From: a virus
Taxonomy: Duplodnaviria; Caudoviricetes
DNA: 62,625 nt
IMG/VR virus record: IMGVR_UViG_3300042475_004015
Span: 1 to 62,625 of that record
Strand: one strand, 5' to 3'
In this document: in pieces, positions 2,384-61,800 of the stretch
How the letters are laid out: the number at the start of each line of letters is the position of its first letter
Numbering within the stretch: the first letter of the stretch is position 1
Made by a program: the position numbers and the translations under genes
Notes under the pieces: model-generated
What the model was told of the DNA's origin: nothing
The model's input: only the letters and a program-made list of their open reading frames with translations
Databases searched by the model: none

Positions 2384-3169
2384 CTAAACTTTTGGGTATT
2401 TTGAAGTGATAAACTCTTCAGGTGCTACTAGGTCAGCGAAGATAAGGGGGAAGATTTCCTTAGCGTATGGTAGAATACAAAGACTTAGCCTTCTGATTTC
2501 AGCATCAGCACCCTCGCCACCTCTTAATTCTAAAAAGTGTCTTAATGCTCTTAGGTTACAAGTCATTACCAGCCTTGTTTCTGCAGCATTGGGTAGTAAA
2601 GATCTAGCTGTTTCATTGATACGCTTTTTAAGCTTACTAGGTACTTTAACGTCTGAGTTTATATACCCTAAGTCTTTTTGAAGGTTAATGTAAGCCTGTA
2701 AGCTATGGTCACAAGCAGTCTTAAAGTTATTAATAAGACCCTCATCATTCAAGTCAACTAACAAGGGCGGAATAACAAACTTTAGGTCTTTAGCATCTAC
2801 ATACCGTTGGGACTCTTGACTCCATGCAAAGCCAGCTCTATGACGAACAAGCTCGTGACTACAGGAACGTGAGATACCAGAGATAGCGAAGGAGATGCTT
2901 GAGTGCTCAAGAACAGAGCCGTGTCTTTGCTCTAGAATGTTCTCGATATACTGTTTGCTATCACGACCCTTTTCCCAGGACCGGTAGCAGTGTCTACCAG
3001 CAAACTCAACTAGCGCATCTGGTACCTTAGAAGTAAACAACTGATGTAGCGGGGTAGACTCGTTATCAGCTAGATCGCCTAAACTATGATAATCGACCCA
3101 GTAATCCAGGTTTTCATGACTCATCGTAGACCAAGCAATGGGTACTACTGTAGGTTGTGTAAGATACAT
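2384..3169 (-). CDS. thyX: Flavin-dependent thymidylate synthase
   Basis: HGSVLEH, SHELVRHR...SQESQRY, NLRALRHFLELR, AEIR motifs. Confidence 0.95.
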   Translation of the reverse strand: MYLTQPTVVPIAWSTMSHENLDYWVDYHSLGDLADNESTPLHQLFTSKVPDALVEFAGRHCYRSWEKGRDSKQYIENILEQRHGSVLEHSSISFAISGISRSCSHELVRHRAGFAWSQESQRYVDAKDLKFVIPPLLVDLNDEGLINNFKTACDHSLQAYINLQKDLGYINSDVKVPSKLKKRINETARSLLPNAAETRLVMTCNLRALRHFLELRGGEGADAEIRRLSLCILPYAKEIFPLIFADLVAPEEFITSKYPKV

Positions 3170-3714
3170 AGATTCATAATCCTTTTAAAGTTAGCTTGAA
3201 GAGATATTAATACACTGGCTTGATCCATAGTCAACCCGACATCTTCTGGTAAACCCAGTGTAGAATACTGGCCTTCAACAGCCATATACTTTTTTTCTTT
3301 TTTTAAAGTAGCTTCATAACCCCCTTTATTAAACTCTTTTTTAGCAGCTGCTATAACCTCCCTAATAAAGGTATACGAGCCTATAAGTTTAGCTTTATCC
3401 CAGTGATTACCTATACTAAGAAGATAGTAATTTTTACTTCCACCCCAAAGCCCGCCACGGGTTATCACTAACCTAACATAGTCAACATGATCCGTTACCC
3501 AAAAGCCAAAAACGTAACTCCAACCCTCACCCATAAGAAGCTCGTCAGCTTTAGGTAGATTAGCGATCTGTATTTGATCTAAAAGTAAGTGCCTTAAATA
3601 CTCTGAGCTTGATATACTCAGTTTATGACATTGGTCTTCAATAAAGGCTCTATGATCTTCAGTGATAGAGGTATTGATAGTTACATCTTTATTCTTAAGT
3701 TTCTTGATTGACAT
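3145..3714 (-). CDS. Hypothetical protein with N-terminal ribbon-helix-helix-like segment
   Basis: INTSITEDHRAFIEDQCHKLSISSSEYLRHLL; GAGG upstream. Confidence 0.5.
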   Translation of the reverse strand: MSIKKLKNKDVTINTSITEDHRAFIEDQCHKLSISSSEYLRHLLLDQIQIANLPKADELLMGEGWSYVFGFWVTDHVDYVRLVITRGGLWGGSKNYYLLSIGNHWDKAKLIGSYTFIREVIAAAKKEFNKGGYEATLKKEKKYMAVEGQYSTLGLPEDVGLTMDQASVLISLQANFKRIMNLCILHNLQ

Positions 3715-3776
3715 AGTGACCTCTTTATTTAGGTTATAGTTAAGTTATTATAGATAAGATAGAGGTGAATGATACT

Positions 3777-4298
3777 TTAGATGCTTTGGATATAAGTACA
3801 CCATTGTGGTGCATTACGTTTTGTCCATTTTGGTAGAAGTTTATCAGCGGGCCAACGGGCGTTTAAATATGTACGATAAGCTTCAATAAGAGGTAGGTGT
3901 TTAAAGTCTAAGTCACGCTTTTTAGAAGCAGCAGCATTATAGAATTGTGGTAGATAACCGATAGGTAAGTTATTAATAAAAAGCTTTTCAAAAGGTTGTT
4001 TCATCTCATCGATAGTTTTATGGGACTTTTCAAACCTGTAGACATACTCATCGCATAATGCTATAAAATGTCTGTAAACCCAATATAGATTATCATAACT
4101 ATCAATAGCTTTTTGAGTTATTTGTGACTTTAGGTGACAGTCTTTATAAAGCTTCATATCACCAGTATCAATTTGTGGGTGACGTTTAATAGCGGTGCAC
4201 AAAAGCTGACAATTCTCAAGCACCATTTTACGGACTCGTTTATCATCGAGTGCCTGAGCGCTAAGTACAGGGCAATAATCGGTTACAAAAAGGTTCAT
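3777..4298 (-). CDS. Pyrimidine-dimer DNA glycosylase (Pyr_excise/DenV-like) family protein
   Basis: MNLFVTDYCPVLSAQALDDKRVRKMVLENCQLL, EYVYRFEKSH, AYRTY..K..WT.R..P.W family motifs. Confidence 0.75.
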   Translation of the reverse strand: MNLFVTDYCPVLSAQALDDKRVRKMVLENCQLLCTAIKRHPQIDTGDMKLYKDCHLKSQITQKAIDSYDNLYWVYRHFIALCDEYVYRFEKSHKTIDEMKQPFEKLFINNLPIGYLPQFYNAAASKKRDLDFKHLPLIEAYRTYLNARWPADKLLPKWTKRNAPQWCTYIQSI

Positions 4299-4425
4299 AA
4301 AAAAACTCCTATCAAGAGTTGAATCTTAATAGGAGTCAAGTTATAACACAACACCTTTACACTGGTATTCATTTAAGACACAACCCTTAAATGAACAACA
4401 CGATTTATCATAAACACAGGCATGA

Positions 4426-4725
4426 TTAATTGATACTATTATTTAATGAGTTTTTAATGGCTTCATAGTCGGTATTTAACTGTTCTACAGTTCCTTCATC
4501 TAAGGCCATTTTGCATGATAGCATAAGGTTTAACACTACACTAAGAAACATGACCTTGGAGACGTTAGAATCTGGTAGGCACTTAATCAGCTGATCGTGA
4601 GCTATGGTGTTAAGTGTAGACACAGCTTCGATATAGGAAAAGGCTGCTTCGGTAGCTGTATTTTTAACAGAGGCTTCTACGGCTATACTGTTAATAAACT
4701 TAATGGCTTCATTTTCAATGTTCAT
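4426..4725 (-). CDS. Hypothetical protein
   Basis: ORF coupled to the upstream exonuclease; GGAG upstream of the ATG at 4725. Confidence 0.55.
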   Translation of the reverse strand: MNIENEAIKFINSIAVEASVKNTATEAAFSYIEAVSTLNTIAHDQLIKCLPDSNVSKVMFLSVVLNLMLSCKMALDEGTVEQLNTDYEAIKNSLNNSIN

Positions 4726-5251
4726 TTTTAAGGTCTCCAATGATTTTACAGATCAAGTTAATCTGTGATTTACAGTCGTCTACAGCCTTGTGGGCTGTAC
4801 CTACTTTATCAGCGATAGCATCTTTTCTATACCTTATTCTGTAGAGCTCTTGAGCCGTTCGTATATCCATACACTTCTTGTAGTTAATAGGGCTTCTGTA
4901 GCCAAAAGCCTGTAGTAGAGAGTTAAGAAGGGGTATATCAAACGTAGCATGAGACCACACATAAGTATCCCTATCGATCATACTATCAATACAATCAATT
5001 AAAGAGGAGATAGGGTAACTATCCATTTTAAAGATTTCACGAGCTTCATTCGACTGTTTTAACCACCATTTAATAGTGGATGGGTCGGTAGTAAGCCCGG
5101 CTTTTATCTGCTCGGTCATTGATAGGTGTATATGTAGAGTCTTCAGGGGAGTAGGGTTAGGCGGATCAAATAGCACTATAGCAACATGAGTAACTACACA
5201 TCCAGGGGATTTACCCATAGTCTCTAAGTCAAGCATTGCGTGTATTGTCAT
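4715..5251 (-). CDS. DEDDh 3'-5' exonuclease (Rv2179c-like)
   Basis: MLDLETMG, WSHATFDIPLL, DIRT, HKAVDDCKSQ. Confidence 0.85.
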   Translation of the reverse strand: MTIHAMLDLETMGKSPGCVVTHVAIVLFDPPNPTPLKTLHIHLSMTEQIKAGLTTDPSTIKWWLKQSNEAREIFKMDSYPISSLIDCIDSMIDRDTYVWSHATFDIPLLNSLLQAFGYRSPINYKKCMDIRTAQELYRIRYRKDAIADKVGTAHKAVDDCKSQINLICKIIGDLKNEH

Positions 5252-5553
5252 TTTTTTACCCTACTTTCAAGAATGGTTATTTTAGCTTCTAGGACACCTC
5301 TTTCCCTTTCGCAGTGTATCAGGCTAACCTGCAGTGTATTAACCTCTTTCTCTAGGGCAACTATTTGAGACCTAAGGGAATCTACATGGTTCATTAAGCT
5401 TGATTGGAAGCTTAGATTATTCTTCATAGTTTGCTGATTAAGGTCACGCCTTTGGACCTGTATGGTTTTCACAGCAGCAACAACTGAAGCTAATATAGAC
5501 GCAAGTACTATGCCAAGGTCTTTTAGGGTTTGAAGTTCAAGTTCGATAACCAT
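5248..5553 (-). CDS. Single-TM coiled-coil membrane protein
   Basis: Hydrophobic GIVLASILASVVAAV followed by a heptad-rich tail. Confidence 0.55.
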   Translation of the reverse strand: MVIELELQTLKDLGIVLASILASVVAAVKTIQVQRRDLNQQTMKNNLSFQSSLMNHVDSLRSQIVALEKEVNTLQVSLIHCERERGVLEAKITILESRVKK

Positions 5554-7622: not shown

Positions 7623-7697
7623 GGTCGTCTAGTTCAATGGTAGAACGTCCCGCTCATAACGGGTTAGTTATCGGTTCGAGTCCGGTGGCGACCACCA
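7623..7697 (+). tRNA. tRNA with CAT anticodon (Ile2 or elongator Met)
   Basis: Acceptor GGTCGTC/GGCGACC, anticodon loop CTCATAA, TTCGAGT T-loop, encoded CCA; paired 1:72 so not an initiator. Confidence 0.9.
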
Positions 7698-8008: not shown

Positions 8009-8085
8009 GACCTCTTAGCTCAACTGGATAGAGCACCTGCCTTCTAAGCAGGATGTTACAGGTTCGAGTCCTGTAGAGGTCGCCA
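8009..8085 (+). tRNA. tRNA-Arg(TCT)
   Basis: Acceptor GACCTCT/AGAGGTC, anticodon arm CCTGC-CTTCTAA-GCAGG, GGTTCGAGTCC, CCA. Confidence 0.95.
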
Positions 8086-16689: not shown

Positions 16690-16745
16690 GTCGTATAAAG
16701 GCATGATTTTTTGTTCTATATTTAATTATCAACACAAAACAAAGG
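16690..16745 (+). promoter_or_regulatory. Phage-specific promoter motif copy
   Basis: GTCGTA, TATATT 27 nt downstream, then TAATTATCAACACAAAACAAAGG. Confidence 0.55.
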
Positions 16746-16753
16746 AACACAAC

Positions 16754-17153
16754 ATGGAACACAACAATAAATTAGTGCCTTTATTTAAAAACATCATTAT
16801 AGGCACCTTTCAGACGCTTACATTAGCAAAAGCTCATGCTAAAAGGCACTTTCCTAACATGCGAACAGTCATTGTAAAAGATGGCAGTAAATACATCCTA
16901 ATGATAAAGTAGAGAGGATTTTATGGAAGACATCAGAAACCTAATCGACCTTGCTGCTCCTATACTATCACAAGAGGAGCTCAATAACTTTATAGCTTAT
17001 ATAGAAAAAGTGTCTAGTAACTTACACACAATAGTGGATACTGACCTTATTCAAATAAGCAGGGATGAAGCCGAAGCCCTTACTAAAGAGCTGAACTTCA
17101 TCACCTCAGAAGCTAAAAGATACTATCAACACAATACAGGAGATAAGTCATGA
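16754..17153 (+). CDS. Two small hypothetical genes (16754-16912, 16923-17153)
   Basis: AAGGA and GAGGA RBS. Confidence 0.55.
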
Positions 17154-17491
17154 GTAAGTTAATATGTTATTGTTGGGCTAATGGTAACATTGGGTTCAGT
17201 AAGACTCGTGTACCAAAAGGTGCACTACCTGTTGCTACGGGTGATGGTATAAAATGGAGGGGAGAGATAGAGGTTTTATGCAGGCTTGCCTATGATAATA
17301 AGACCTATATAATCTCTGAGGTTAGGGATGCCGTACTTCATGGCGGGGATGCTCTCGAAGCTTTACGTGATTTTATGACTAAGCTGGAGAAGTTGGGTTT
17401 AAAAGACCCTGATACAGTATTAGGTCAAAAGGTAAGAGAGTTAGCAAAGTCTAACCAAGACTTCGTAGATAAAATAAGGAGTAGTATATGA
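17150..17491 (+). CDS. Phage family often annotated as host nuclease inhibitor
   Basis: CYCWANGNIGF...PKGALPVA.G...CRLAYD motif. Confidence 0.5.
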   Translation: MSKLICYCWANGNIGFSKTRVPKGALPVATGDGIKWRGEIEVLCRLAYDNKTYIISEVRDAVLHGGDALEALRDFMTKLEKLGLKDPDTVLGQKVRELAKSNQDFVDKIRSSI

Positions 17492-20912: not shown

Positions 20913-21749
20913 ATGAGCCAGTGTGTATTAAAAGCTATAGCGGGATCGCTGATAACTTTTTATGTAGTTATCGCGACTCCTCGCGAAATAAACGAACAAT
21001 CAGGGGTAAATTATGTTGATAAAAGCCTCGAAAGGGTCGAAAAATTTAAGCCTAGCATACGGGGTTACGAAAGGTTCCTAGGGAATACTAGGCTCGAATG
21101 CAAACCTAGTTCTGATGAACAAAAAATTCAGTGCCGTTAAGTCGTCCAACTGTAGTAATAGGGGGTAGTGATATGATTAAAAATTTAACCCATTTTCGAA
21201 AGTATATTAAAGATGGCGTAAAGTTTAAGGTATATGGATTCTTTAATGGCCTTGATAAAATAAACTCAGATTATGACCCTGTAGTTGGTAAGACTGTGAT
21301 CATAAAACGTCACAATCGAAGAGGTTTTGTTGTAGCAGATAATGATAAGGAGTATTGGGTACCCTATCCTTGGGGCCCTGGTTTTAAATGCGAAAAACGG
21401 CTTAATAAAACAGTAGTAATACTTTTTAGGCCTGGTCATAGTAGTGGTAAACATCTAATCTTGGAGTTAAATGATGAATGATTTTGGCTATATAGGTGGC
21501 GAGTTTTGGGAAAGACCTGAAATTAAAGGTTTTAAATTCTATTGGAATGTAGCTGTGATACTTAGACACCCTTTGTTACATAATGGGGCCCTAAGTTTAA
21601 TAGCAGACCATTTTAATATACCTAATTATACATTAGAAACTGTTGAAGATTTAGCAGATTTTATGGTAATCAATGGCTATTGTGATTGGTCCCTTAAAAA
21701 TGTTAGTAAAAATGTCTGGATTTTAAAATATGGAGAGAGAAATGACTGA
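20913..21749 (+). CDS. Three hypothetical genes (20913-21140, 21131-21481, 21471-21749)
   Basis: Co-oriented overlapping ORFs; GGAG RBS on the first and third. Confidence 0.55.
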
Positions 21750-21981
21750 AGTAAGTGAAAGACTGGAGAGCTACATCGAAAGATTAGAGAATCTACATGC
21801 AGAGATTAAAGACCTTAAAGGGGATATAAAGCTTGTATTAAAAGAGGCTAAATCAGAAGGGCTTGAACCAAAGGCTTTAAAAGCGATTGTATCCATGAAG
21901 AAGAAAGGCCTAGAAACGGTCAGGGAAGAGATGACCACCGTAGAGATGTACTGTAGTGCTATTGGGATTGAGATCTCCTAA
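21742..21981 (+). CDS. gapR: GapR-like (DUF2312/UPF0335) DNA-binding protein
   Basis: ERLESYIERLENL..EIKDL..DIK....EAKSEG...KALKAIV.M.K...R.E...VEMY..AIG. Confidence 0.85.
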   Translation: MTEVSERLESYIERLENLHAEIKDLKGDIKLVLKEAKSEGLEPKALKAIVSMKKKGLETVREEMTTVEMYCSAIGIEIS

Positions 21982-22419
21982 AAAGTGCCTTAAGGAAAAG
22001 GGCCTAGCCCTAAAAGGGCCTAAGCTTAAAAGTCCTTTAATAAAGATAACATAAAAGCCTGTAGAAAAAGCTACCATACAAGTAAAGTAAATATGGTTAT
22101 TCTCTACAGGCTTATTAGTAGGTAATCGAGCACTATAGTAGTTTTGTTTAGCACTAATTTATACAAGTTACCATTTGTAATATAGTAAAGATTATTCATC
22201 ACCCATGTTGGATTAACAGTAAATAAGTATAGGTTGTTTCCAGCAAATAGCACTGTTATTAGCTGAAAATAGATAGTACATAAGGATAGTTTTATAAAGG
22301 TATTTAAGTTCTAGTCTCTAGCTATGGATGTTCATTAAACATACCAATAATTATTTTTACTAACAGCAAGTAATTCTTACCAAAAATAAGTTATCAAAAA
22401 AAATCAAAGTACTAGAAGT

Positions 22420-22480
22420 AAATTGGTAGAGAGCTTTATGCAGGTGTAAGAAAAAATTGGTAGAGACAAATTGGTAGAGA
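22420..22480. repeat. AAATTGGTAGAGA direct repeat x3
   Basis: Copies at 22420, 22454 and 22468. Confidence 0.85.
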
Positions 22481-22527
22481 CCTTTTGTGGCGGTGACAGA
22501 GATGGCAACATATATGTGGGTTTAATT

Positions 22528-22600
22528 AAATTCATCATAAATTCATCATAAATTCATCATAAATTCATCATAAATTCATCATAAATTTATCATAAATTTA
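22528..22600. repeat. 11-bp tandem array AAATTCATCAT (5 perfect plus variants)
   Basis: Direct reading of the sequence. Confidence 0.95.
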
Positions 22601-22757
22601 TATCAATTTTTAATTAAATAATATCCCTAAAATATATATCAAATTTTATATAAAAATAATCATATATCAAAATGAATTTGAATCAACCTTTTTTGTGTGT
22701 TGTGTTGTGTGACATATATATATGTATAAATTTTTTTCACCCCCATACATTTTTTTG

Positions 22758-22855
22758 TTGCATCATGAAAAAAAATTTTTTAATGTGATTTTATTGATCA
22801 TCACACAACACACAATGATCATGTTCAACACAACACAAAATGAAATGACACAATC
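22758..22855 (+). promoter_or_regulatory. Island promoter 1 and leader
   Basis: TTGCAT-N17-TAATGT; leader ends CAACACAACACAAAATGAAATGACACAATC-ATG. Confidence 0.65.
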
Positions 22856-23290
22856 ATGAAAAATACACACAACACAAAACAAAAAAAACATTTAAACATT
22901 GTTTCAAATGATGAAACAATTTTAAATGATGTTTCACATGAAACAATTTTAAATGATGTTTCAAATGATGAAACAAAAATCAATTTAAATGAATTTCAAC
23001 AATTTAAACATTTTGAAAATATCAAATTGTTTATTGAAACAAACAAAAATGATTTTTTCAAATTGACACAAATTGCAAAATTAATACAATGTGATGCAAA
23101 AACATTGAGACAAAAATTTAGAAAAATTTATGCAATTTTTGATCAATCAAAATTGACACAAATTGTTGCATCACAAAATGACAATGAAAAATGGTTGTTT
23201 GCATTTAATGAAAAAAATTTATTAAATGTTTTGAAAATGTCATACATGCAAAATATAAAAATTGAAATGCAATTATTAAAAATTGCATAA
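22856..23290 (+). CDS. Island ORF1, HTH DNA-binding protein (no Pro or Gly)
   Basis: KLTQIAKLIQCDAKTLRQKFRK...KWLF; own promoter and terminator; N-terminal 30-bp repeats. Confidence 0.75.
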   Translation: MKNTHNTKQKKHLNIVSNDETILNDVSHETILNDVSNDETKINLNEFQQFKHFENIKLFIETNKNDFFKLTQIAKLIQCDAKTLRQKFRKIYAIFDQSKLTQIVASQNDNEKWLFAFNEKNLLNVLKMSYMQNIKIEMQLLKIA

Positions 23291-23305
23291 TCAATACATG
23301 AAATG

Positions 23306-23344
23306 ATTGTGTGATATGTGAAAATGTATCACACAATTTTTTTT
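23306..23344 (+). terminator. Intrinsic terminator of island ORF1
   Basis: ATTGTGTGATA-N10-TATCACACAAT plus T-run. Confidence 0.8.
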
Positions 23345-23364
23345 CATCATCATTCATTTTTTTG

Positions 23365-23456
23365 TTGCATGATGAAAAAAAATATGACATGATATAAACA
23401 TGATCAAAACAAAATGATCATGTTCACAACACAACACAAAATGAAATGACACAATC
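23365..23456 (+). promoter_or_regulatory. Island promoter 2 and leader (duplicate of promoter 1)
   Basis: TTGCAT-N17-CATGAT with extended TG; same leader end as promoter 1. Confidence 0.65.
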
Positions 23457-23921
23457 ATGAAAAACACAATACACATAATGAACACAATGAACATAAAACA
23501 CAACATCACATTTGATGTGAATGATGAAAATTTTAATATAAATGATGTTGATTTTTATCATAAAAACATATTTGATGATATGTATAATCAATATAAATTA
23601 AACATTGATAAAATTGAATACAATGAACATGAAAAAAATTTTTTTCATCATTTTATAAATTTATTTGATAAAAAACAATTTAATAAAATTGTTATTGATT
23701 TTTTGTATATTATGAATCAATTTTGTGAACAACACACAAAAAATGATAAAAACATTTTTTTGCAAAATGTTTTATTTGAAAATGATTTTTATGAATATAT
23801 CAATAAAATATGTTTTGACAATTTATGTGATATTGATGATTTGTTTTGTTTGATTGATCATCATGATGATTATAATGATGTTCAATGTGATATATTATTT
23901 AATAACATTGTAAACAATTAA
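23457..23921 (+). CDS. Island ORF2, acidic Asn/Asp/Phe-rich protein (no P, G, R, W, S or A)
   Basis: 154 open codons in very AT-rich DNA; duplicated leader; terminator. Confidence 0.7.
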   Translation: MKNTIHIMNTMNIKHNITFDVNDENFNINDVDFYHKNIFDDMYNQYKLNIDKIEYNEHEKNFFHHFINLFDKKQFNKIVIDFLYIMNQFCEQHTKNDKNIFLQNVLFENDFYEYINKICFDNLCDIDDLFCLIDHHDDYNDVQCDILFNNIVNN

Positions 23922-23978
23922 ATCAATGTATTCATGATGATGTATATTGTTATATAATGCACATTATGACAAATCAAT

Positions 23979-24017
23979 AAATGATGCAACACATAAAAAT
24001 GTTGCATCATTTTTTTT
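23979..24017 (+). terminator. Intrinsic terminator of island ORF2
   Basis: AAATGATGCAACA-N8-TGTTGCATCATTT plus T-run. Confidence 0.85.
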
Positions 24018-24091
24018 ATTTATATATATCAAATTTTATTTAATCTTTATACACATTTAATGTGTATTGCAACCTTTTAATAATACATACA

Positions 24092-24160
24092 ATTTAATAT
24101 ATATTTAATACATATTTAATACATATTTAATACATATTTAATACATATTTAATATATATT
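24092..24160. repeat. 11-bp tandem array ATTTAATA(C/T)AT x6
   Basis: Direct reading of the sequence. Confidence 0.9.
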
Positions 24161-24320
24161 TTAACCATCACTATCTCCCCATCCATACCACCCCCACACC
24201 TATTTATTGTCAAGCACAGAAATTAGGGGATAGATACAAGAGAAATTATTACTTGGCCAAAGTATTTTCACTTTTAGGTTCAAAAAATTATAAGGGGTAA
24301 ACCTGCTATAGGGAAAAATC

Positions 24321-24349
24321 TTGTATTTCTATATTTCATAGATTATGAT
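24321..24349 (+). promoter_or_regulatory. Sigma70-like promoter
   Basis: TTGTAT-N17-TATGAT. Confidence 0.55.
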
Positions 24350-24382
24350 TATCTATCACTAATCATCAACTAAGGAGTTCTT

Positions 24383-25336
24383 ATGTCACACGAAATCGAA
24401 ACTATCGCATATACGAATGAAGTACCTTGGCACGGCCTTGGGACTTATATCCAAGATGCACCCTCTGTAGACGACATGCTAATAAAAGCAGGACTTGATT
24501 GGACTGTAGTGAAAGCTCCAGTACACGCTGAACACGATACCGGCCTTGTATCAACTAACGAACATTTTGCTCTTGTTCGTAGCACTGACGGCAAAATACT
24601 TGACGTCTGTGGAAAACACTACATCCCAGTACAAAATCGGGACGCTTTAGGGTTCTTTCGATCCTTTGTAGAGGCTGGCGATGCTACTCTTGAAACTGCG
24701 GGTTCACTAAAAGGCGGTAGAAACATTTGGGGACTAGCTAACCTCGGTCAAAACTTCCACCTGAAGAACAACACATCCGACCAATTAAAGTCGTACTTGC
24801 TTATCTCTTCACCTCACGAGGTCGGTAAATCACTACAGATTAAATTTACTTCTGTCCGTGTAGTGTGTAACAACACGCTAACCCTTGCTTTAAACTCGGC
24901 TGCTCAATTCCGTATGTCTCACAGAGTGCAGTTCGACGAGTTCAATCAAGAGCGAGCTCGTGAAGTACTTGGCATTGCAAGAGATGAGTCTAAACAGTTC
25001 GAGCAAACAGCTAATCTACTCTCTACACAAAAATTGTCTCATGATGACATTATCCGAGTGCTACAACCCGTCTATCAACCTGACCATAATCCTGTAGATC
25101 TTATTAATAGTTCCGACAAGTACTTGTCACCAACTATTAAAGCGATCATGTATGCTAACGAAAATGCACCAGGTGCCGACCCCACCACTGCATGGGGACT
25201 GTTAAATGCAGTAACATACTACTCCGACCATGTAGCATCTAGGTCTGTAGATAAACGCATGTATAACGCATGGTTCGGCAAAACTGCTAATCATAAAGAA
25301 AAAATACTTAACACGCTAGTTTCTATGGCTGCATAG
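24383..25336 (+). CDS. DUF932 / TIGR03299 phage-plasmid protein
   Basis: VPWHGLG, AGLDWTV, Y.PVQN, ETAGSLKGGR, RVVCNNTL, TAWGLLNAVT. Confidence 0.92.
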   Translation: MSHEIETIAYTNEVPWHGLGTYIQDAPSVDDMLIKAGLDWTVVKAPVHAEHDTGLVSTNEHFALVRSTDGKILDVCGKHYIPVQNRDALGFFRSFVEAGDATLETAGSLKGGRNIWGLANLGQNFHLKNNTSDQLKSYLLISSPHEVGKSLQIKFTSVRVVCNNTLTLALNSAAQFRMSHRVQFDEFNQERAREVLGIARDESKQFEQTANLLSTQKLSHDDIIRVLQPVYQPDHNPVDLINSSDKYLSPTIKAIMYANENAPGADPTTAWGLLNAVTYYSDHVASRSVDKRMYNAWFGKTANHKEKILNTLVSMAA

Positions 25337-25357
25337 CATTCATTACTAACTATTAAC

Positions 25358-25391
25358 TATAGCCTAGTAAACCTTTACTAGGCTATTTTTT
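25358..25391. terminator. Hairpin terminator between convergent genes
   Basis: ATAGCCTAGTAAA-cc-TTTACTAGGCTAT plus TTTTT. Confidence 0.8.
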
Positions 25392-25716
25392 AAGGGTCGT
25401 TTTGGAAGTCTTCATCGTCTTCGTCATAGTCAGCGGGTAATACTGGAAGGGTTAATCCGCAATTATGACATAGGAGACTTAACGGATCCATGAGTAAATG
25501 GAATAACTGACATCCGCACTGACATTCTCGCCTTACGACCCCGTTACTAGGTGCTACACCGTATAATCTTCTACCTGTAGGTGTTCCACAATCTGGGCAT
25601 TCCACCAAGGCTACTCCGGCTGGTGAACAAGCTACCCATAAACACCCGCACAGGGTACAAATGGCCTCACCTGTTATATGCGGTAGTCGTTCGGTTAAAT
25701 CTACTATGTTAGTCAT
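25390..25716 (-). CDS. Zn-ribbon protein with multiple CxxC motifs
   Basis: CTLC, CPDC, CQCGC, CHNC. Confidence 0.7.
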   Translation of the reverse strand: MTNIVDLTERLPHITGEAICTLCGCLWVACSPAGVALVECPDCGTPTGRRLYGVAPSNGVVRRECQCGCQLFHLLMDPLSLLCHNCGLTLPVLPADYDEDDEDFQNDP

Positions 25717-26225: not shown

Positions 26226-27116
26226 CTAAAACTCATCCATTTTCATCCTTAAAAACACTGGGTGACGAGGTTTATCTTTAACACCTATTGGGAAATGTTT
26301 ATAGGTTACAATCTTACCCATTAAACCTCTACGGTTATCCCAAAAGGTTTGTCTAATCTCGTCAGTAAATCCACTACCGATGCTGAACTCTACATCAGCA
26401 TAGTGTAGTGAATCGGGTAAACCTCGTACTAATAAATTGCCAAGTGTATTGCCGGGTCGCATATTTGCTTTGTGGCTTGAGCGTTCTTGCTTGCCGAGTT
26501 CATTAATAGTAGGAGGATTGTCGTTAATAAGCAATTCGTCATAGCCAATGATGACTGCTTCGCCGTCTAAGAATTTTTTAAGCTTAATCAAGCCATTCTC
26601 GCGAAGTGTTGAGCGACCGTTTTTGTAGGTACCATAGGGGTCACGGAGCATAACACCTTCGTAACCGTCTTGTAGGGTATCATGTTCATATTTTACTAAC
26701 TGTTCTACAGATCTAAGTATAGTATGATCCCATAACTTAACAGGACCATCTGTAGTTAGTCGAGTCTTTACTAAACCCAAGCGGGTGAGGTACTTCTCTG
26801 ATTCGCCTAAAAGGTCGAAAGCATATAAAGTTACATCAGGCTCGCCATCATGACTCATAACACCACTAGAGGTACTCCTGTAGGCATCATGGCTGTTTGG
26901 TTCGCCAACTATTAGTTCACCGTCAAAGCCCTCATATTCAGGTTTAGCGAAAAGTTTTTGCACATAACGATTAGGGATAGGCTTAAGTGATCTGCTGTAT
27001 ACAACACCATTTTGTATTGTGGCTCGTATACCATCTAATTTTGGGCTGGCTAGGTAAGGGAAATTTAAGTCGTTTAGGTCCTCAGCTGTCGCTGATAACA
27101 TCGGCTTCTGTATCAT
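26226..27116 (-). CDS. ATP-dependent DNA ligase
   Basis: SPKLDGIR, FDGEL, YAFD, EGVMLR, KLK motifs; OB-fold GSGF. Confidence 0.95.
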   Translation of the reverse strand: MIQKPMLSATAEDLNDLNFPYLASPKLDGIRATIQNGVVYSRSLKPIPNRYVQKLFAKPEYEGFDGELIVGEPNSHDAYRSTSSGVMSHDGEPDVTLYAFDLLGESEKYLTRLGLVKTRLTTDGPVKLWDHTILRSVEQLVKYEHDTLQDGYEGVMLRDPYGTYKNGRSTLRENGLIKLKKFLDGEAVIIGYDELLINDNPPTINELGKQERSSHKANMRPGNTLGNLLVRGLPDSLHYADVEFSIGSGFTDEIRQTFWDNRRGLMGKIVTYKHFPIGVKDKPRHPVFLRMKMDEF

Positions 27117-27663: not shown

Positions 27664-27752
27664 AAATAAATCCTTATATACTGTTTACAAGTTATATGTT
27701 ATTATCTTATAAAGAAAGAGTCAAACAATGATCTCGTGGTTTGGAGAAAAAT

Positions 27753-28268
27753 ATGCCCGCAAGTAGAGGTTTTCATCAGAAAAGGCTGTCTATTAAAGAC
27801 CCCACTATTAAGGCCAAGTTTTTAAAGGTCTTAGCTGAGACTGGTCTACCAAAATTTGCGTCCACAGCTTGTGGTGTAGTATATCAGCAGGTGAGAAAAG
27901 AGATACGAGAGAATGCCGAGTTTGCTGAAGAGGTCGCTGAAGCCCAGGAGGAGTACAACGACACACTAGAGATGGAGATACACCGTAGGGCTGTAGATGG
28001 TTGGAACGAGCCTGTGTATAGCCAAAAACTTGGGGTTAAAATTGGTACTATTCGTAAATACAGTGATAAGTTACTTGAGCTTAAGGCTAAACGGCATATC
28101 TCTGCTTACCGTGAACGTAAGTTTGAGGATCAAAATGTTATAGCCGGTGTTATGGTTGTGGGTTTAGTACAAAATAGTCCAGACAAGTGGGTTGAACAGT
28201 ATAAAGACGCAGAGGTTCAATCTCTTGTTTTTGATAATAAAATGAAAGAAGTAGATTATGAAGACTAA
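27753..28268 (+). CDS. terS: Terminase small subunit
   Basis: KFLKVLAETG..., LEMEIHRRAVDG, YSDKLL; upstream of TerL. Confidence 0.8.
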   Translation: MPASRGFHQKRLSIKDPTIKAKFLKVLAETGLPKFASTACGVVYQQVRKEIRENAEFAEEVAEAQEEYNDTLEMEIHRRAVDGWNEPVYSQKLGVKIGTIRKYSDKLLELKAKRHISAYRERKFEDQNVIAGVMVVGLVQNSPDKWVEQYKDAEVQSLVFDNKMKEVDYED

Positions 28269-56126: not shown

Positions 56127-57084
56127 TTTTAAGACCTTTGTTTTCTACTTTATACTGACCTTTTATTATCATGTCTACGTCCGAGCCAGTCAGTTCAGCT
56201 CTACAGATAGATTCATAGTCACAAAATTTGCAGTGCATTCCGATGTTTTTTACCTTTTTCTTTCCATGATTCTCCACTAATTCCTGGGCGCTGTCAATAA
56301 AATCTTTATAGACAGACTCCACTATACTCTGGTTAATTGGAGTGAATACCCTTATAAAATAGTTAGATAGGTTTTGCTGTGCAGCGTCTATTAGCTTCTT
56401 AGAGAAGTTTGGATCATAGCCCTGTTCTTCAGCATACCTACGGATAACACCCGGCAATGTGTTGAGTTTAGCCTCTGATAATTTACCGCTTTTTAATATC
56501 CTGGGTATCTCAGGTGCACCGCTGTGGATATAATCCCAACACATGCCGTCAGCCTCAGCTAACCCAGTAATCTGTAGAGCTTTTAGGTATACAGCTGACT
56601 GAATGTTTCTCCATCTTTCATCATTAGCGGGCATCCGGTTAAAGGTTTTATGCTCTACTACCCATACTAACTTATTAGCTGTTTTAGCTATAGCATCTAT
56701 CTTACCAGTAAAGATAATACCATCAGCTATCTCTATATTAAACTCATGTTCAGCATACCTACCGCCCCTTCTAAGATAAAAGAGTGAGTCATCACCCCAG
56801 TACTCAAAGTACTCCATCATGATGTTTCGGATATCATTTATAAGATCGCCGTATAACTCATACTCTTCTTGGAACATTTTACCCTTTTCAGCCTCGATAG
56901 CATCCAGTTTTTTAAAGGGATCCCTATTGTTAGCCTGTTCTTCTATTAGTTCATGAATTATTCCACCAAACGTAAAAGGTCTTTTAATAGTCTTTTTTCT
57001 TAAAAGCTCTACATACTTCTGATGATAAGCAAACTGACATTGACGCCAGGTCTTAATTTTTGATTGACTTACTTTGACTTCCAT
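56110..57084 (-). CDS. PD-(D/E)XK Cas4/RecB-like exonuclease
   Basis: SQS.I..WRQC, GKIDAI, VEHKT, Q..VY, CKFCDYESIC. Confidence 0.88.
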   Translation of the reverse strand: MEVKVSQSKIKTWRQCQFAYHQKYVELLRKKTIKRPFTFGGIIHELIEEQANNRDPFKKLDAIEAEKGKMFQEEYELYGDLINDIRNIMMEYFEYWGDDSLFYLRRGGRYAEHEFNIEIADGIIFTGKIDAIAKTANKLVWVVEHKTFNRMPANDERWRNIQSAVYLKALQITGLAEADGMCWDYIHSGAPEIPRILKSGKLSEAKLNTLPGVIRRYAEEQGYDPNFSKKLIDAAQQNLSNYFIRVFTPINQSIVESVYKDFIDSAQELVENHGKKKVKNIGMHCKFCDYESICRAELTGSDVDMIIKGQYKVENKGLKNENTK

Positions 57085-59546
57085 TTTTCTAAACTAACTC
57101 CTTTGCTCCATGGACCAATCTGTGCTTCACCCAGTATGGGGACCCGAAGGTCAACACCAAACTCTTCTAATAGGTCAGGGCCAGACATCACCTGTAGTAT
57201 CCTGTTATAAACTTCTTCTACATACTCATCTTTAACCAAAAACATAGTAGCATCATGAACTGTACCAATAACCCTAACTTTGTCTACACCATATTCTCTA
57301 GAGATCTGCAGGGCAGTCATTAGGTTTAGGTCATTAGCGAATGATTGAACGGGTGAATTAATAGCTTGCCTTTCAGCTTCTTTCTTACCTGGTGTATCAT
57401 AAGTAGCTTTAGCTTCTGGTAATCTTCTCTTTCTACCGATAAGGCTTTCTACATAACCATACCTTTTTGCAAAGCTTTTTTGTTCATTATGCCATTCCAA
57501 AAACTTTGGGTATAGTTCAAAGAAGGCATCTCGGCTAGCTCTAGCTTCATCGTCAGTAACAGTTACCCCATAATTATCACGAGCATAGTCTTTAAACTTT
57601 ACCCACCACATGCCATACAAAAACCCAAAGTTAATAGCTTTAGCTTTTTTTCTTAACTCTTTCCAACCCTTATCAAATTCTTGAGATTTTTCAGGGCCAT
57701 ACTTTAATAGTACCTGTATAGCCTCGCCATAATTAAGGGGCTTATCTGGGAGTACGTCATACTTTTTTAGTAAGCAAGTAGCTGTATGTTTTATTAACTC
57801 AGGTTGACTACCCTGCCTACCTAACTCCCTTATCAAGGTTAACCAGTGAACATCTACACCTGTAGCAAAAGCGTGTAACATAGTTGTCTCATTAGCTACC
57901 TCAGCAGCTACTCTTAACTCAATTTGTGAAAGGTCAGCGTCTATTAATTGCCAACCTTCGGGTGCTGTTATTAAGGACCTTATTCTTGGATCCCGTGGTA
58001 CTTGCTGTAGGTTAGGTCTTTCACAAGATAACCTGCCGGTCACTGTACCATGAAGCTTAAAGCTAGGGTGTAGTGTACTGTCTACAATAAAGGGTTTCCA
58101 GCCTTCAATGAAAGCACTCAGTTGTTTTGATGCCTCTCGGTATCTTAGTAGTGAGGCACACATGGGATGGTCTATTTGTTTAATAACAGACTCGCTTGTA
58201 GCTCTACCGCCTTTAGGTGTGTATGACACTACAGGTATATTAAGCTTATCATAGAGTAGCTCACCAAGCTGTTTAGGTGAATTCCAGTTTGTACCTGGGC
58301 CCCACTTTTCAAGTACTTTTAATGCTTCAGTAAGCTCATTCTTTAGGTAGTCCTCAGCATCCTGCATTTTTGACAGGTCAATATAGATACCGTAGTATTC
58401 TATAGTTATAAATAACCTTACACAGGGCATAATGATTTTATCAAAGACCCTTTTAGTTTTAGGCTCTTTAGCTAACCTTTTGCTAAATATACTATAAAGC
58501 TTTAAAGTGTATAATAAGTCTAGCCCATGATACTTAGATACTACTTCTAAAGTACCGCTAATTTTATCCTCACCACCAATGTCATAACTCGGTGCACCAC
58601 AGTAAATAGTAGCTAAGTATTTTAAACCATGTTGACTATTTTCATCCAATGAATAGTGAGCCATCATAGTATCAAAGTCTAAGTACCAATCTACCTTATA
58701 GTGTACTTTCATCCATAGCATATCAAACTTGCCATTATGAGCAACAAGAATACAGTCTTGAAGTTTGTCGGTTAACTCTCTTACTATCGCTTTTCTGTTA
58801 CGATAACCCCATAAGGAGTATTGTTTGGCTAAAGGGATAGACCATTGAAAATTCTTAGTACCAAAGCCGATAAAGTTTATCTCTGCACCATTATCCCATG
58901 GATAAAGACCAGTAGTTTCTATATCAAAAGACACTACACCCTTAAGGTCATTCATCATCTCGTCAAAGGTTTCGTCATCATTTACGACCCTAAGGTTAAG
59001 TGATTCTTCTTCTAATAATCCGCCGTTTTGAATTAAACTGCTAAAAGTTGATAAGTCAGCCTCAACTACAGAGGATAATGCTGGGTCATATAAAAGGTTA
59101 CTTATAGAATAAGTTGGCATATATACTATATCGTTAACCTTAAGCGGTTTACCTCTAGCTTTCTTTATACCCTTTATCTCAAGTGCCGATTGCAATGCTA
59201 CGTTACCTAGCAGTAGGATAAATTTAGGCTTAACTAACTCTATCTCTTTTTGTAGCCAATACCGACAAGCATTTATCTCAGTCTTTGTAGGGTCTTTATC
59301 ACCAGGTTTTCTACAGTGAACTGCGTAGGTATAATAGTAGTCTTGTATACCTGCACTAGATAACAGATCGTGAACACTCTGACCATACTTGCTACTATAA
59401 GCTCTATCACATTCATCATCCTCCCGAGAAGGCGAGTCAATGATAACCATCACTAATGACTTAACATCTGTAGAGTAGTTACCTAATAAGCATACACTTT
59501 GGCAACCAGAGGACAGTTTACATTTAGTACAGTTTATATCCCTCAT
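57069..59546 (-). CDS. polA: Family A DNA polymerase with N-terminal UDG-like domain and 3'-5' exonuclease
   Basis: FDIETTG, HNGKFD, TGRLS, DLSQIELR, KAINFGFLYG, VHDA; N-terminal C..C.L...CR...EI.AC. Confidence 0.95.
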   Translation of the reverse strand: MRDINCTKCKLSSGCQSVCLLGNYSTDVKSLVMVIIDSPSREDDECDRAYSSKYGQSVHDLLSSAGIQDYYYTYAVHCRKPGDKDPTKTEINACRYWLQKEIELVKPKFILLLGNVALQSALEIKGIKKARGKPLKVNDIVYMPTYSISNLLYDPALSSVVEADLSTFSSLIQNGGLLEEESLNLRVVNDDETFDEMMNDLKGVVSFDIETTGLYPWDNGAEINFIGFGTKNFQWSIPLAKQYSLWGYRNRKAIVRELTDKLQDCILVAHNGKFDMLWMKVHYKVDWYLDFDTMMAHYSLDENSQHGLKYLATIYCGAPSYDIGGEDKISGTLEVVSKYHGLDLLYTLKLYSIFSKRLAKEPKTKRVFDKIIMPCVRLFITIEYYGIYIDLSKMQDAEDYLKNELTEALKVLEKWGPGTNWNSPKQLGELLYDKLNIPVVSYTPKGGRATSESVIKQIDHPMCASLLRYREASKQLSAFIEGWKPFIVDSTLHPSFKLHGTVTGRLSCERPNLQQVPRDPRIRSLITAPEGWQLIDADLSQIELRVAAEVANETTMLHAFATGVDVHWLTLIRELGRQGSQPELIKHTATCLLKKYDVLPDKPLNYGEAIQVLLKYGPEKSQEFDKGWKELRKKAKAINFGFLYGMWWVKFKDYARDNYGVTVTDDEARASRDAFFELYPKFLEWHNEQKSFAKRYGYVESLIGRKRRLPEAKATYDTPGKKEAERQAINSPVQSFANDLNLMTALQISREYGVDKVRVIGTVHDATMFLVKDEYVEEVYNRILQVMSGPDLLEEFGVDLRVPILGEAQIGPWSKGVSLEKWKSK

Positions 59547-60007
59547 GGCATTATTACCTTATTGTTAGAGTGATCGAGTAGATATCCTGATGGGGTAACT
59601 TGGTATACTTCTATACCGCTTTTAATCAATAGTGCTAATGATGTGGTATCTCTGTATGCTACTTCATAATATACAGCTTTAATGCCAGCAGCCATTAGTT
59701 TTTCAGCACACACTAGGCACGGTGAGTGTGTTACATAAATTGACTTATCTTTAGCCCATTCACTATTTGGGATAAACCGTATAGCATTATCCTCGGCATG
59801 AAGACTTTTACTGCATCCACCACTTGTTGATAAAGGGCAGTGATTACCTTTGCAGTGTTCTTCACCTGATGGTGAGCCATTATAGCCAATAGAAACTACA
59901 CGGTTCTCTACAACTATAACACAGCCTACATTTAAGCGATGGCAGGTAGACCGTTTTGAGGCTGAACGGGCCATTTCCATAAACATCTGGTTACGACTTA
60001 TTCTCAT
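59543..60007 (-). CDS. dCMP deaminase
   Basis: RSTC, GYNG, HAE, PCLVC. Confidence 0.93.
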   Translation of the reverse strand: MRISRNQMFMEMARSASKRSTCHRLNVGCVIVVENRVVSIGYNGSPSGEEHCKGNHCPLSTSGGCSKSLHAEDNAIRFIPNSEWAKDKSIYVTHSPCLVCAEKLMAAGIKAVYYEVAYRDTTSLALLIKSGIEVYQVTPSGYLLDHSNNKVIMP

Positions 60008-60016
60008 AGGGTTGCT

Positions 60017-60856
60017 TTATTTAGGTGAACCAAAAAGTGTGATGTAGTCATTTACAAACAAGTGTAGGCTTACGATGTGCATAGTAAAAAGTCCAGGCCT
60101 AATTTTGTTCCAATAGTCTGGGTCCCTTAGTCTTAGTTGGTCAAGTACCCAAAGTTGTAGTAGTACAGTCAAGTAAATGTCATCTCTAAAGTGTCTAACA
60201 AAATCACAAGACCTTAGGTAGTAAGTGATGTGTAACTTATCCTGCCTTACTATAAAATGATACCCTAAACTACATGGTATTCTACCGCCATTAACACAGC
60301 CAGTATCCTCTGGGAAAAAGACTGGTAAATAAGCTTGCCTTGTAAGTGGCTGTTCTTTTAAAAGTTTCACCAAGTCGTTAAGATCACCCAATATCGTATC
60401 AGGCCTTACACCTCTATTAAACTTAAAGTGGTCATGGTATGGACTTGTAGGGTCACATATAGTACCACTAAGCTCACCTTGATCGGTTAACCCAGCATAA
60501 GTCGGCCAATATCTCTCCATATAGTTATGGTTAAATTGACCGTTAGCATCACGGAACTTATCGGCAGAGTGACTGTAGGGCCAGTTTGCCCACTCTTTAC
60601 CAGGGTTAAGGGGCTCACCACATACTCTTTCCTTAAAGTGGTCATCCGCCCACGGTAAGTTTGGCTGTATTGCTTTAGCTAATACCGACCTGTCTTCAGT
60701 CTGAACTTCGCAAGTAAAAGAGTGGTTTAATAACTCATAAGTAGTCATAGCACCTTGTTTTGATATGTCTAAACCTTGCCATTTTTCGGTGTGAACTTTA
60801 TAAGACTTATTTTTAAGCCTTATTTTAGCATCTTCTATATATACTTCAAAACTCAT
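60017..60856 (-). CDS. ThyA-fold nucleotide C5 modifier, probably dCMP (hydroxy)methylase
   Basis: TRQAY, IPC, RSCDFVRHFRDD (Asp at the Asn177 position), SLHLF. Confidence 0.8.
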   Translation of the reverse strand: MSFEVYIEDAKIRLKNKSYKVHTEKWQGLDISKQGAMTTYELLNHSFTCEVQTEDRSVLAKAIQPNLPWADDHFKERVCGEPLNPGKEWANWPYSHSADKFRDANGQFNHNYMERYWPTYAGLTDQGELSGTICDPTSPYHDHFKFNRGVRPDTILGDLNDLVKLLKEQPLTRQAYLPVFFPEDTGCVNGGRIPCSLGYHFIVRQDKLHITYYLRSCDFVRHFRDDIYLTVLLQLWVLDQLRLRDPDYWNKIRPGLFTMHIVSLHLFVNDYITLFGSPK

Positions 60857-61619: not shown

Positions 61620-61800
61620 TAATTATGCCCCCTTTAAAGATATTGATAAGGTTATCATGGTTATTTTTAACCTCCTCTGGCTCGCTAGCTGTTTCAACTA
61701 CAAACTCGTCACTATATAGTTCAGAGTTAGTATACTCTACTACAGCCAATAAACCTTTAAGTAGGTCATTTTCTGTTATGGTAATTTGTTTATTAGTCAT
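61609..61800 (-). CDS. Small acidic hypothetical protein
   Basis: Overlaps both neighbours in the operon. Confidence 0.55.
   Translation of the reverse strand: MTNKQITITENDLLKGLLAVVEYTNSELYSDEFVVETASEPEEVKNNHDNLINIFKGGIINAN

Follow-up and report, generated by a model that had tools for sequence, protein, structure and literature searches.

A 1.3-kb island of a lake phage genome in which cytosine is confined to 5'-CA-3' with three exceptions

The first-step-transfer region of phage T5 and the leading end of T7 carry a few first-expressed genes, read by the host RNA polymerase, on DNA that must be free of nuclease targets, as it is exposed before any protection is in place (for T5, bioRxiv 10.1101/866236). 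A similar arrangement is proposed here for an island of 1.3 kb (positions 22744-24044) in a lake phage genome (IMG/VR record IMGVR_UViG_3300042475_004015; the 62,625-base contig analysed is called the window), in which cytosine is followed by adenine on both strands. However, T5 and T7 avoid particular sites of 4-8 bp, whereas in the island a dinucleotide grammar reshapes the proteins; moreover, the neighbours of the island are exempt from the rule, the rule is strand-asymmetric and the island is known from a circular assembly. The product of T7 gene 0.3, Ocr, is an acidic DNA mimic, and small acidic proteins are also found among the island products. The nearest known systems each share one aspect with the island, and none shares its rule.

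The cytosine replacement of the T-even phages and Xp12 (by dCMP hydroxymethylase or methylase, dCTPase and dCMP deaminase) is paralleled by an Asp-type thymidylate synthase (TS) homologue, a pyrophosphohydrolase and a deaminase, which the window encodes in an order reported for fully C-modified phage contigs. Glucosylation in T2 and T6 skips some 5-hydroxymethylcytosines depending on the neighbouring base, which is a precedent for context dependence. Unlike in the T-even phages, no glucosyltransferase or other second-step enzyme was detected here in the family searches described below, and relatives with the same enzyme lack the island. To our knowledge, no T-even region is written to avoid particular cytosine contexts. 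The island resembles acr-aca operons, in which Aca is a helix-turn-helix repressor, in having a conserved regulator-like gene beside small, acidic, rapidly exchanged proteins, a putative strong promoter and palindromic candidate operators (TGATCA repeats) at its promoters; however, each island gene has its own putative promoter and terminator, and we know of no composition rule in acr loci. The island is also similar to morons, as it consists of autonomous units with their own putative promoters and terminators, is lower in G+C than its surroundings, is bracketed by direct repeats and has a patchy distribution, with close relatives differing in its presence. In morons, only the overall composition deviates, and we know of no strict both-strand dinucleotide rule described for them. 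Repeat-induced point mutation (RIP), CpG decay and APOBEC-type editing also produce A+T-rich DNA with skewed dinucleotides, but they act through transitions and leave broken genes, whereas island differences are dominated by transversions and its genes and signals are intact; furthermore, fungal RIP removes CpA, which the island spares. Full-text literature searches, which did not extend to supplements, returned no description of a CpA-only or comparable cassette.

In this work, a violation is any of the dinucleotides CC, CG, CT, AG or GG. In the core of the island (1301 nt: A 578, T 456, C 136, G 131), all 136 cytosines are in CA and 128 of the 131 guanines are in TG, while CC, CG and CT are absent. 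The three exceptions (AG at 23108, AG at 23120 and GG at 23193) concern the template strand and belong to codons 85 (AGA), 89 (AGA) and 113 (TGG) of the first open reading frame (ORF1), encoding Arg85, Arg89 and Trp113. The edges are exact, with the nearest outside violations at 22743 (left) and 24045 (right). Neither of the two encoded proteins contains Pro or Gly, and the promoter regions, leaders and both terminator stems all lie within violation-free DNA. GC occurs just 14 times, each time within TGCA. An earlier note, written from the sequence alone, had described the rule with these edges, the codons of the three exceptions, the missing residues and the compliance of the non-coding signals; its account was exact.

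Mononucleotide shuffles of the island (n=2000), which is approximately 80% A+T (GC fraction 0.206), gave 146.7 ± 7.2 violations with a minimum of 125, compared to 3 observed. When the same two proteins were recoded favouring codons ending in A or T, the minima were 19 and 5 violations (3 and 0 observed). At the codon borders, 61 of 61 G-initial codons followed NNT and 25 of 25 NNC codons preceded ANN, indicating a dinucleotide rule that runs through all codon phases and not a codon preference. Violations account for 24.7% of the dinucleotides of the window, and the longest violation-free run away from this locus is 56 bp, compared to runs of 852 and 365 bp in the island. A set of 117 unrelated viral loci, most of them AT-rich and together 1,052,498 bases, had a longest run without violations of 120 bp (median 41). 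The earlier note had also held that A+T-richness alone does not explain the rule. ORFs were scored for 77 of 100 greedy ORF calls. The island ORFs had CA/C ratios of 1.00 and 1.00 and TG/G ratios of 0.93 and 1.00, while the remaining 75 scored ORFs ranged from 0.18 to 0.61 and from 0.16 to 0.44 respectively, without a gradient.

Some simple causes were tried and rejected. The lack of a gradient among the scored ORFs rules out a graded, early-to-late version of the rule. Thermodynamic softness was rejected, as CT/AG is less stable than CA/TG by nearest-neighbour values and is nevertheless banned. Avoidance of UV dimers was rejected because TT and TC are plentiful in the island, and a tRNA or codon-level cause because the rule spans codon junctions.

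Relatives of the locus were sought using the adjacent DUF932 gene as anchor, which gave 8 loci in viral contigs and 20 in metagenome contigs. Islands were present only in L001/L009 and L002/L003, and the 24 other loci (DUF932 35-60% identity, mostly G+C-rich) had none. L002 and L003 are two different records that are 99.98% identical over 11,037 nt. L003 covers both island junctions and harbours four island ORFs, two of them unrelated to those of the window: an ORF1 homologue is followed by a spacer with two copies of the motif AAATTGGTAGAGA (3545-3585) and then by a 1.5-kb stretch of three ORFs (a new ORF, a homologue of the second island frame, ORF2, and another new ORF), which holds a violation-free run of 1,133 bp. 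The flanks of L001 are 94.7-96.6% identical to the window, and its contig ends inside the island. The ORF2-family protein of L001 is 43% identical to that of the window and also lacks Gly, Pro, Arg and Trp; its gene is nearly compliant (1 CG and 1 CT in 486 nt). The rule recurs at the same locus in two related variants, and it is conserved while gene content changes much faster than the surroundings.

Further searches added little. The GapR-like neighbour, the ORF2 homologue P0002 and the ORF1 alignment gave nothing new as queries against viral contigs, the ORF1 alignment had no match in genome contigs, and an exact search with 31 nt of the leader had no match. The promoter motif was found in the L002/L003 records only, apart from two AT-rich chance matches without islands. 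Among named phages, in a set that may lack near-identical records, BLAST matched neither the flanks nor the island nor P0005. The ORF1-family homologues sit on short contigs of 1.2-6 kb.

Beyond what the earlier note described, the two halves of the rule are not kept equally. On the plus strand, 'G only after T' corresponds to 'C only before A' on the template strand, and this half holds over a wider zone (22520-24212) with the same three exceptions (AG/GG/CG-free runs 22519-23108, 23120-23193 and 23193-24213). In L001 (1-905) there are 0 AG, 0 GG and 2 CG, and in L003 (approximately 2800-5500) the G half is broken only in the codons for the same Arg, Arg and Trp and in the two AAATTGGTAGAGA copies, the latter accounting for 6 of the 9 G-type violations of that zone. 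By contrast, the coding-strand half is broken freely in the flanks and in a C-rich tract, and the ORF1 homologue of L003 contains 21 CC, 13 CT and 2 CG, mostly in Pro codons. Counted over the coding regions of both the window and L003, violations number 42 on the coding strand (0+0+36+0+0+4 plus 2 CG already included) vs. 6 on the template strand, all six in the Arg, Arg and Trp codons. At the protein level the asymmetry is echoed by Gly, which never occurs, and Pro, which sometimes does. As the template strand is bound harder than the coding strand, the asymmetry is as expected of a cost incurred while RNA polymerase is reading that strand.

The 11 island-family proteins (1548 residues) contain no Gly, compared to 117.6 expected from the large ORFs of the genome, and they are poor in Pro (25 vs. 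63.5 expected), Arg (22 vs. 75.9) and Trp (7 vs. 24.8). At the 'LP' position of ORF1, four of five homologues have Pro and the window has Thr (CCA vs. ACA), and the Arg codons of ORF1 are CGA and CGC in L003 but AGA and AGA in the window. The Thr and AGA codons of the window give fewer violations than the versions of L003 and the homologues. The CCA/ACA, CCA/CAA, CGA/AGA and CGC/AGA differences are all transversions. In the C-terminal domain of ORF1, 15 transitions and 40 transversions separate the window from L003, while five flanking comparisons gave ratios of 0.85-1.9; the transversion excess is the opposite of what a deaminase predicts, which disfavours an origin of that type. These comparisons indicate that the rule is held by strong purifying selection and not by a mutational bias. 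Selection is preferred to chance or codon bias because of the recoding controls and the all-or-nothing contrast with the 75 other ORFs.

The island consists of two units of one design, each with a T-tract/TTGCAT block, a leader, a small ORF and an intrinsic terminator, all on the plus strand. Putative promoter 1 (22728-22786) has a T-tract, TTGCAT (22758-22763) and a weak -10-like TAATGT after a 17-nt spacer. It is followed by leader 1 (22797-22855), which is CA-rich and unstructured and contains a TGATCA inverted repeat, by ORF1 (22856-23290; 144 aa, basic) and by terminator 1 (23305-23338), a 15-pair stem with a T-run (-21 kcal/mol, z -4.31; 0 of 200 shuffles as stable). Putative promoter 2 (23335-23383), with a T-tract and TTGCAT (23365-23370), is 88% identical to promoter 1, and leader 2 (23395-23456), which likewise has a TGATCA inverted repeat and a CA-rich, unstructured stretch, shares 27 identical nt with leader 1, including a mini-ORF. 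ORF2 (23457-23921; 154 aa, acidic) belongs to a fast-evolving family and is followed by terminator 2 (23979-24012; -15.9 kcal/mol, z -5.04; 0 of 200 shuffles as stable). The stems of both terminators are made of TG/CA pairs. The T-tract/TTGCAT block is kept in all four aligned upstream regions and TTGCAT matches five of the six positions of the -35 consensus; a sigma-70-type identity of the promoters is suggested by this conserved -35-like block. The island leaders have no Shine-Dalgarno sequence, which most other ORFs of the genome do have. Bacteroidota-type promoters or translation were rejected because the other genes have strong Shine-Dalgarno sites. This mini-ORF of three codons, ATG AAA TGA, lies in both leaders (22840-22848 and 23441-23449) with its end 7 nt from the start of the island ORF, and it also precedes the ORF1 homologue of L003 (at about 3014-3022); it may be a start-stop element for Shine-Dalgarno-independent initiation.

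The cassette is bracketed by a direct repeat of approximately 22 nt (22632-22654 and 24022-24044; 90-95% identical). Tandem repeats with an 11-bp period lie on both sides, at 22527-22603 (a family of 5 overlapping 33-nt copies) and at 24092-24168, the latter with more copies in L001 (707-830); this period approximates one turn of the helix, so that the DNA may be bent or the repeats may be iterons. Just to the left of the zone, the 13-nt motif AAATTGGTAGAGA, a candidate operator, occurs in three exact plus-strand copies starting at 22420, 22454 and 22468 (22420-22480). A scan gave 8 matches with at most 2 mismatches, a number reached by 1 of 100 shuffles; single near-copies lie at 14383 and 5676. 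To the right, between the cassette and the upstream region of the DUF932 gene, there is a C-rich, G-free tract (24165-24201, plus strand). Its length differs among the three variants (about 824-905 in L001 and about 5497-5530 in L003), it is G-rich on the minus strand, and it may serve for Rho loading or be prone to G-quadruplex formation.

Residues 45-143 (approximately) of ORF1 were modelled at block pLDDT values of 66-94, and the order of helices and strands fits a winged helix. ORF1 could be a basic winged-helix-like DNA-binding protein, a suggestion that we make with little confidence. Apart from the L003 homologue, an exhaustive, profile-free search found three further family representatives only (71, 50 and 52% identity); Arg85, Arg89 and Trp113 are invariant in all five family members. 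The N-terminal part contains a 27-nt tandem duplication (22911-22964, encoding ETILNDVS twice) in place of the Pro-rich linker of L003 and P0003. ORF2 has a net charge of -15 and lacks Gly, Pro, Arg, Trp, Ala and Ser; its homologues (82, 43 and 35% identity) are restricted to relatives of this phage. The acidic proteins of the island family have net charges from -6 to -22. Searches of Pfam and PHROGs gave nothing significant for ORF1, ORF2 and the two extra ORFs of L003, and neither these databases nor Foldseek (best E 0.059) revealed a sequence or confident structural likeness to Acr or Aca families. Rfam gave only sub-threshold, miRNA-like chance matches.

The window is an entire genome by circular assembly, as its first and last 127 bases (1-127 and 62499-62625) are an exact direct overlap, leaving a unique genome of 62,498 bp. 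The source labels this 127-base repeat 'direct terminal repeats'; it may be a mere assembly overlap, and it does not define the physical termini. The gene content includes terminase, structural and replication genes and two tRNA genes, tRNA-Arg(TCT) (8009-8085), which reads AGA, the sole Arg codon in the island, and tRNA-Met (7623-7697). The neighbourhood of the island includes a GapR-like DNA-binding protein (21730-21981, 0.7 kb upstream; E 1.6e-19), the DUF932 protein (24383-25336; E 1.8e-39), an ATP-dependent DNA ligase (26226-27116) and the small terminase subunit (27741-28268), with the island 3.7-5 kb upstream of the latter. DUF932 is frequent in plasmid leading regions. A member of a 'host nuclease inhibitor' PHROG is encoded at 17150-17491 (E 3.1e-11). 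Genome-wide, CpG is depleted (observed/expected approximately 0.56 from dinucleotide counts) and CT/AG and CC/GG are slightly over-represented. The highest CA/C outside the island (0.61) is that of a 69-aa ORF (16703-16912, G+C 0.31), with an ordinary TG/G of 0.32.

A predicted cytosine-replacement pathway is encoded on the minus strand (57069-62524) by PolA, a dCMP deaminase (59543-60007; PF00383/PF14437), an Asp-type TS homologue (60017-60856), a 257-aa ORF of unassigned function (60846-61619) and a PRA-PH/MazG-like pyrophosphohydrolase (61793-62524; PF01503), which would remove dCTP. ThyX is encoded elsewhere in the genome. The TS homologue has the catalytic Cys and, at the specificity position, an Asp aligned to the uracil-specifying Asn of TS (E. 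coli N177). Its best solved relatives are CMP/cytosine 5-hydroxymethylases (E 0.0018), together with an L. casei TS chain that has Asp at the aligned position. Cys195 and Asp226 are present in every one of 30 sampled members of its family, which numbers 4,404. According to two reports, the change of N177 to Asp in TS homologues marks a cytosine-modifying class, several members of which made 5-methyl-dC (PMC8670742; bioRxiv 10.1101/2024.12.05.627091). These domains are also reported together on metavirome contigs that had been chosen for cytosine modification in every context (PMC8670742; bioRxiv 10.1101/2024.12.05.627091), and a matching gene neighbourhood, in the very order of the window (PolA, deaminase, TS homologue, ORF of unassigned function, PRA-PH), has been described for fully C-modified metavirome contigs (bioRxiv 10.1101/2024.12.05.627091). 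From this gene set, all cytosines of the phage are very probably replaced, through the nucleotide pool, by 5-methyl- or 5-hydroxymethylcytosine. The 257-aa ORF resembles TS-containing clusters by language-model features only. Its alignment with the TS homologue, which spans the Cys and Asp motifs, is not significant (E 4.6), and a search of the PDB gave no sequence relative; it may be a second TS-fold enzyme. Look-ups for this ORF and a 514-aa ORF, likewise unassigned, gave unnamed viral clusters and the weak TS lead only.

The earlier note had proposed that cytosines of the virion DNA carry a modification that depends on the 3' neighbour and spares CpA, and that the cassette is kept unmodified so that unaltered host RNA polymerase can read it first. 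A cytosine modification is indeed predicted, from a gene set that the note had not cited, but that set is reported for modification in all contexts, and replacement at the pool level would modify the CpA cytosines too, so an unmodified island is not expected. A neighbour-dependent second step could still follow, although none of the six informative family searches described below revealed a transferase or methyltransferase. The reading of the note that unaltered host polymerase transcribes the cassette agrees with its appearance, which is that of host-polymerase-read units with their own terminators.

As a tentative explanation, held at somewhat less than even confidence, we propose that the island is an immediate-early cassette kept blind to a cytosine-directed, transcription-blocking activity that is sensitive to the 3' neighbour. 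A few genes would have to be transcribed from the incoming DNA while the blocking state exists. The agent would put this state at cytosines before C, G or T and never at CpA, and, with cytosine predicted to be 5-methyl- or 5-hydroxymethylcytosine throughout, it would act on modified cytosine; candidates for the blocking state are a bulky second-step mark, an abasic site, a nick or deamination. Purifying selection would then confine cytosine to 5'-CA-3', most strictly on the template strand. The bracketed, exchangeable cassette would provide two autonomous units readable by unaided host RNA polymerase, and its cargo would be an immediate-early takeover or anti-defence module composed of the basic DNA-binding ORF1 and the rapidly diversifying acidic ORF2. 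One conserved regulator-like gene together with variable acidic proteins favours a cargo of the arms-race style. The grammar and its conservation, the anatomy of the cassette, the asymmetry between strands and the predicted pool-level modification come from the data; we infer the early timing, the selection through transcription and both the existence and the nature of the agent.

The agent might be a second-step modification of the phage itself, which was the idea of the earlier note, or a host or competitor enzyme attacking modified cytosine; each of these is unlikely when taken singly, to about the same degree, and what remains of our tentative confidence falls on agents that cannot be named at present. 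The constancy of the rule across the variants favours a constant, phage-side agent, while a cargo in the style of an arms race speaks for one on the host side. In a specific 'boot sector' version, which is likewise improbable by itself, full cytosine replacement would be combined with a block at every non-CpA cytosine, so that the island alone would be readable by unmodified host RNA polymerase and its products would unlock or protect the rest.

A number of points weigh against the cassette explanation. Pool-level replacement covers all contexts and by itself gives no reason for a CpA rule. Searches with PF00145 (C5-methyltransferase), PF01555 (N4/N6-methyltransferase), PF00535 and PF00534 (glycosyltransferases, GT2 and GT1), PF02543 (carbamoyltransferase) and PF01702 (tRNA-guanine transglycosylase) gave no match while their controls worked; those with PF09198 (T4 glucosyltransferase) and PF12851 (TET/JBP) were uninformative as the controls were silent. 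Most early ORFs match no family at all. Two complete (CheckV 100%) distant relatives with an Asp-type TS homologue have no island anywhere, their longest violation-free runs being 27 and 21 bp, and Cys195 and Asp226 are invariant in the four TS homologues compared, which include those of these relatives; therefore, the predicted modification alone does not require the cassette. The -10 boxes are weak, and a consensus promoter scan (at least 9 of 12 matches) listed neither island promoter. The best Foldseek match of ORF1 had an E of 0.059 and a TM score of approximately 0.28, in a list of mostly MarR-type and other winged-helix regulators, and the ORF2 model was too poor for a structure search (pLDDT 45.6). 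Transcription of the other approximately 100 ORFs would need a further assumption: products of the island would have to adapt the polymerase or else eliminate or neutralise the agent. We know of no enzyme with a 'C not followed by A' specificity, and full-text literature searches found none that separates CpA from the other three CpN dinucleotides. An appreciable minority of our confidence is reserved for explanations that we have not thought of.

Generic minimisation of restriction and CRISPR-PAM (protospacer adjacent motif) targets in first-entering DNA, as in the first-step-transfer DNA of T5, is a rather improbable alternative; a reduced sequence alphabet would keep such targets few until protective proteins have been made. 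In the T5 genome, EcoRI and CRISPR can attack no sites except those within the 8% that enters first (bioRxiv 10.1101/866236). The rule leaves 612 of the 4096 hexamers. The banned CC/GG, AG/CT and CG are parts of numerous PAMs and restriction sites, and the proximity to the small terminase subunit would, by common phage layouts, perhaps place the island near the last-packaged, first-ejected end. However, permitted palindromes are plentiful in the 1.3 kb (CATG 14, TGCA 14, GATC 6, TGATCA 6, TCATGA 5), and DUF932, the ligase and the other genes that separate the island from the terminase are ordinary in composition. The contig is circular by its 127-bp overlap, so the physical ends are not placed. 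Moreover, a model of duplex sites leaves the strand asymmetry unexplained, and the exactness of one simple rule suggests one agent.

A rule acting on RNA is more doubtful still. Transcripts would avoid C before C, G or U and G after A, G or C because of a ribonuclease, an RNA-binding repressor or Shine-Dalgarno-independent translation. The island ORFs all share one strand, in mRNA the stricter half reads 'G only after U', and without AG or GG the transcripts, with their CA-rich, unstructured leaders, contain no Shine-Dalgarno-like or GGA motif. Nevertheless, the two halves are exact complements, which comes free under a duplex rule but not under an RNA rule. Each of the three codon phases obeys the rule, as do the codon junctions, the DNA upstream of the promoters and the repeats beyond the terminators. 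ACA, the site of E. coli MazF, is abundant in the island, and we know of no ribonuclease of the required specificity.

With even less likelihood, CpA/TpG could be a positive signal, the island being saturated with the mark of a modifier or of a DNA-bending or DNA-binding protein. The data fit 'only targets remain' equally well as 'only non-targets remain', and the phased 11-bp repeats that flank the island and the GapR-like protein encoded nearby would suit such a function. Yet a signal would not demand that all other contexts be banned to the point of losing Gly; CA/C is ordinary elsewhere in the window, and the family searches offered no enzyme candidate.

Two further alternatives are both very unlikely. 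Mutational erosion would mean that a context-specific cytosine deaminase or similar activity destroyed non-CpA cytosines, leaving indispensable codons; the A+T content and the survival of other contexts only in the invariant Arg and Trp codons are as expected from it. Nonetheless, the transversions outnumber the transitions, the informative changes are impossible by deamination, ORFs of 144-170 codons stay open at 80% A+T, promoters and terminators look functional and are conserved, and the island edges coincide with the cassette borders. The other is a foreign moron that retains the composition of a donor genome written under the rule, to which the repeat-bracketed promoter-ORF-terminator units, the deviant composition and the varying content between close relatives would correspond. 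However, no donor is known, as searches with the ORF1 family and the island gave only these phages and short metagenome contigs, and ORF1 of the window differs from four of the five homologues in the direction of better compliance, which indicates enforcement in the present place. An assembly artefact or chimeric insert, which the earlier note had considered and which the end of L001 inside the island and the short contigs of the ORF1 homologues might suggest because such DNA assembles poorly, has a negligible chance given three variants between the same neighbours, L003 spanning both junctions, the agreement of L002 and L003 across records, ORFs conserved as proteins and, as weak support only, four sequencing runs that contain at least 0.96 of the sampled words of 21500-25500, one of which is not flagged as a possible source. 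No RNA data set was among the 24 runs listed.

The deletion of Gly from a whole protein set means that a single misplaced dinucleotide is costly and that the infected cell contains a reader of DNA (or RNA) that resolves single dinucleotides. Under the cassette explanation, this reader would be either a new context-specific step of phage hypermodification or a new host activity against modified cytosine, met by first-expressed counter-measures; both possibilities would matter for phage-host arms races and might yield an enzyme tool for epigenetic sequencing. Under a dipeptide grammar, the island proteins are themselves natural cases of domains that fold with no Gly and, for the most part, no Pro, Arg or Trp. 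As a signature, the rule is simple to search for, as violation-free runs of several hundred bp do not arise by chance, and it could locate such cassettes, and with them the earliest-acting genes of uncultured phages, from sequence alone. If the 'boot sector' version were true, it would establish a new principle of how infection by hypermodified viruses begins and would imply an enzyme with a new dinucleotide specificity.

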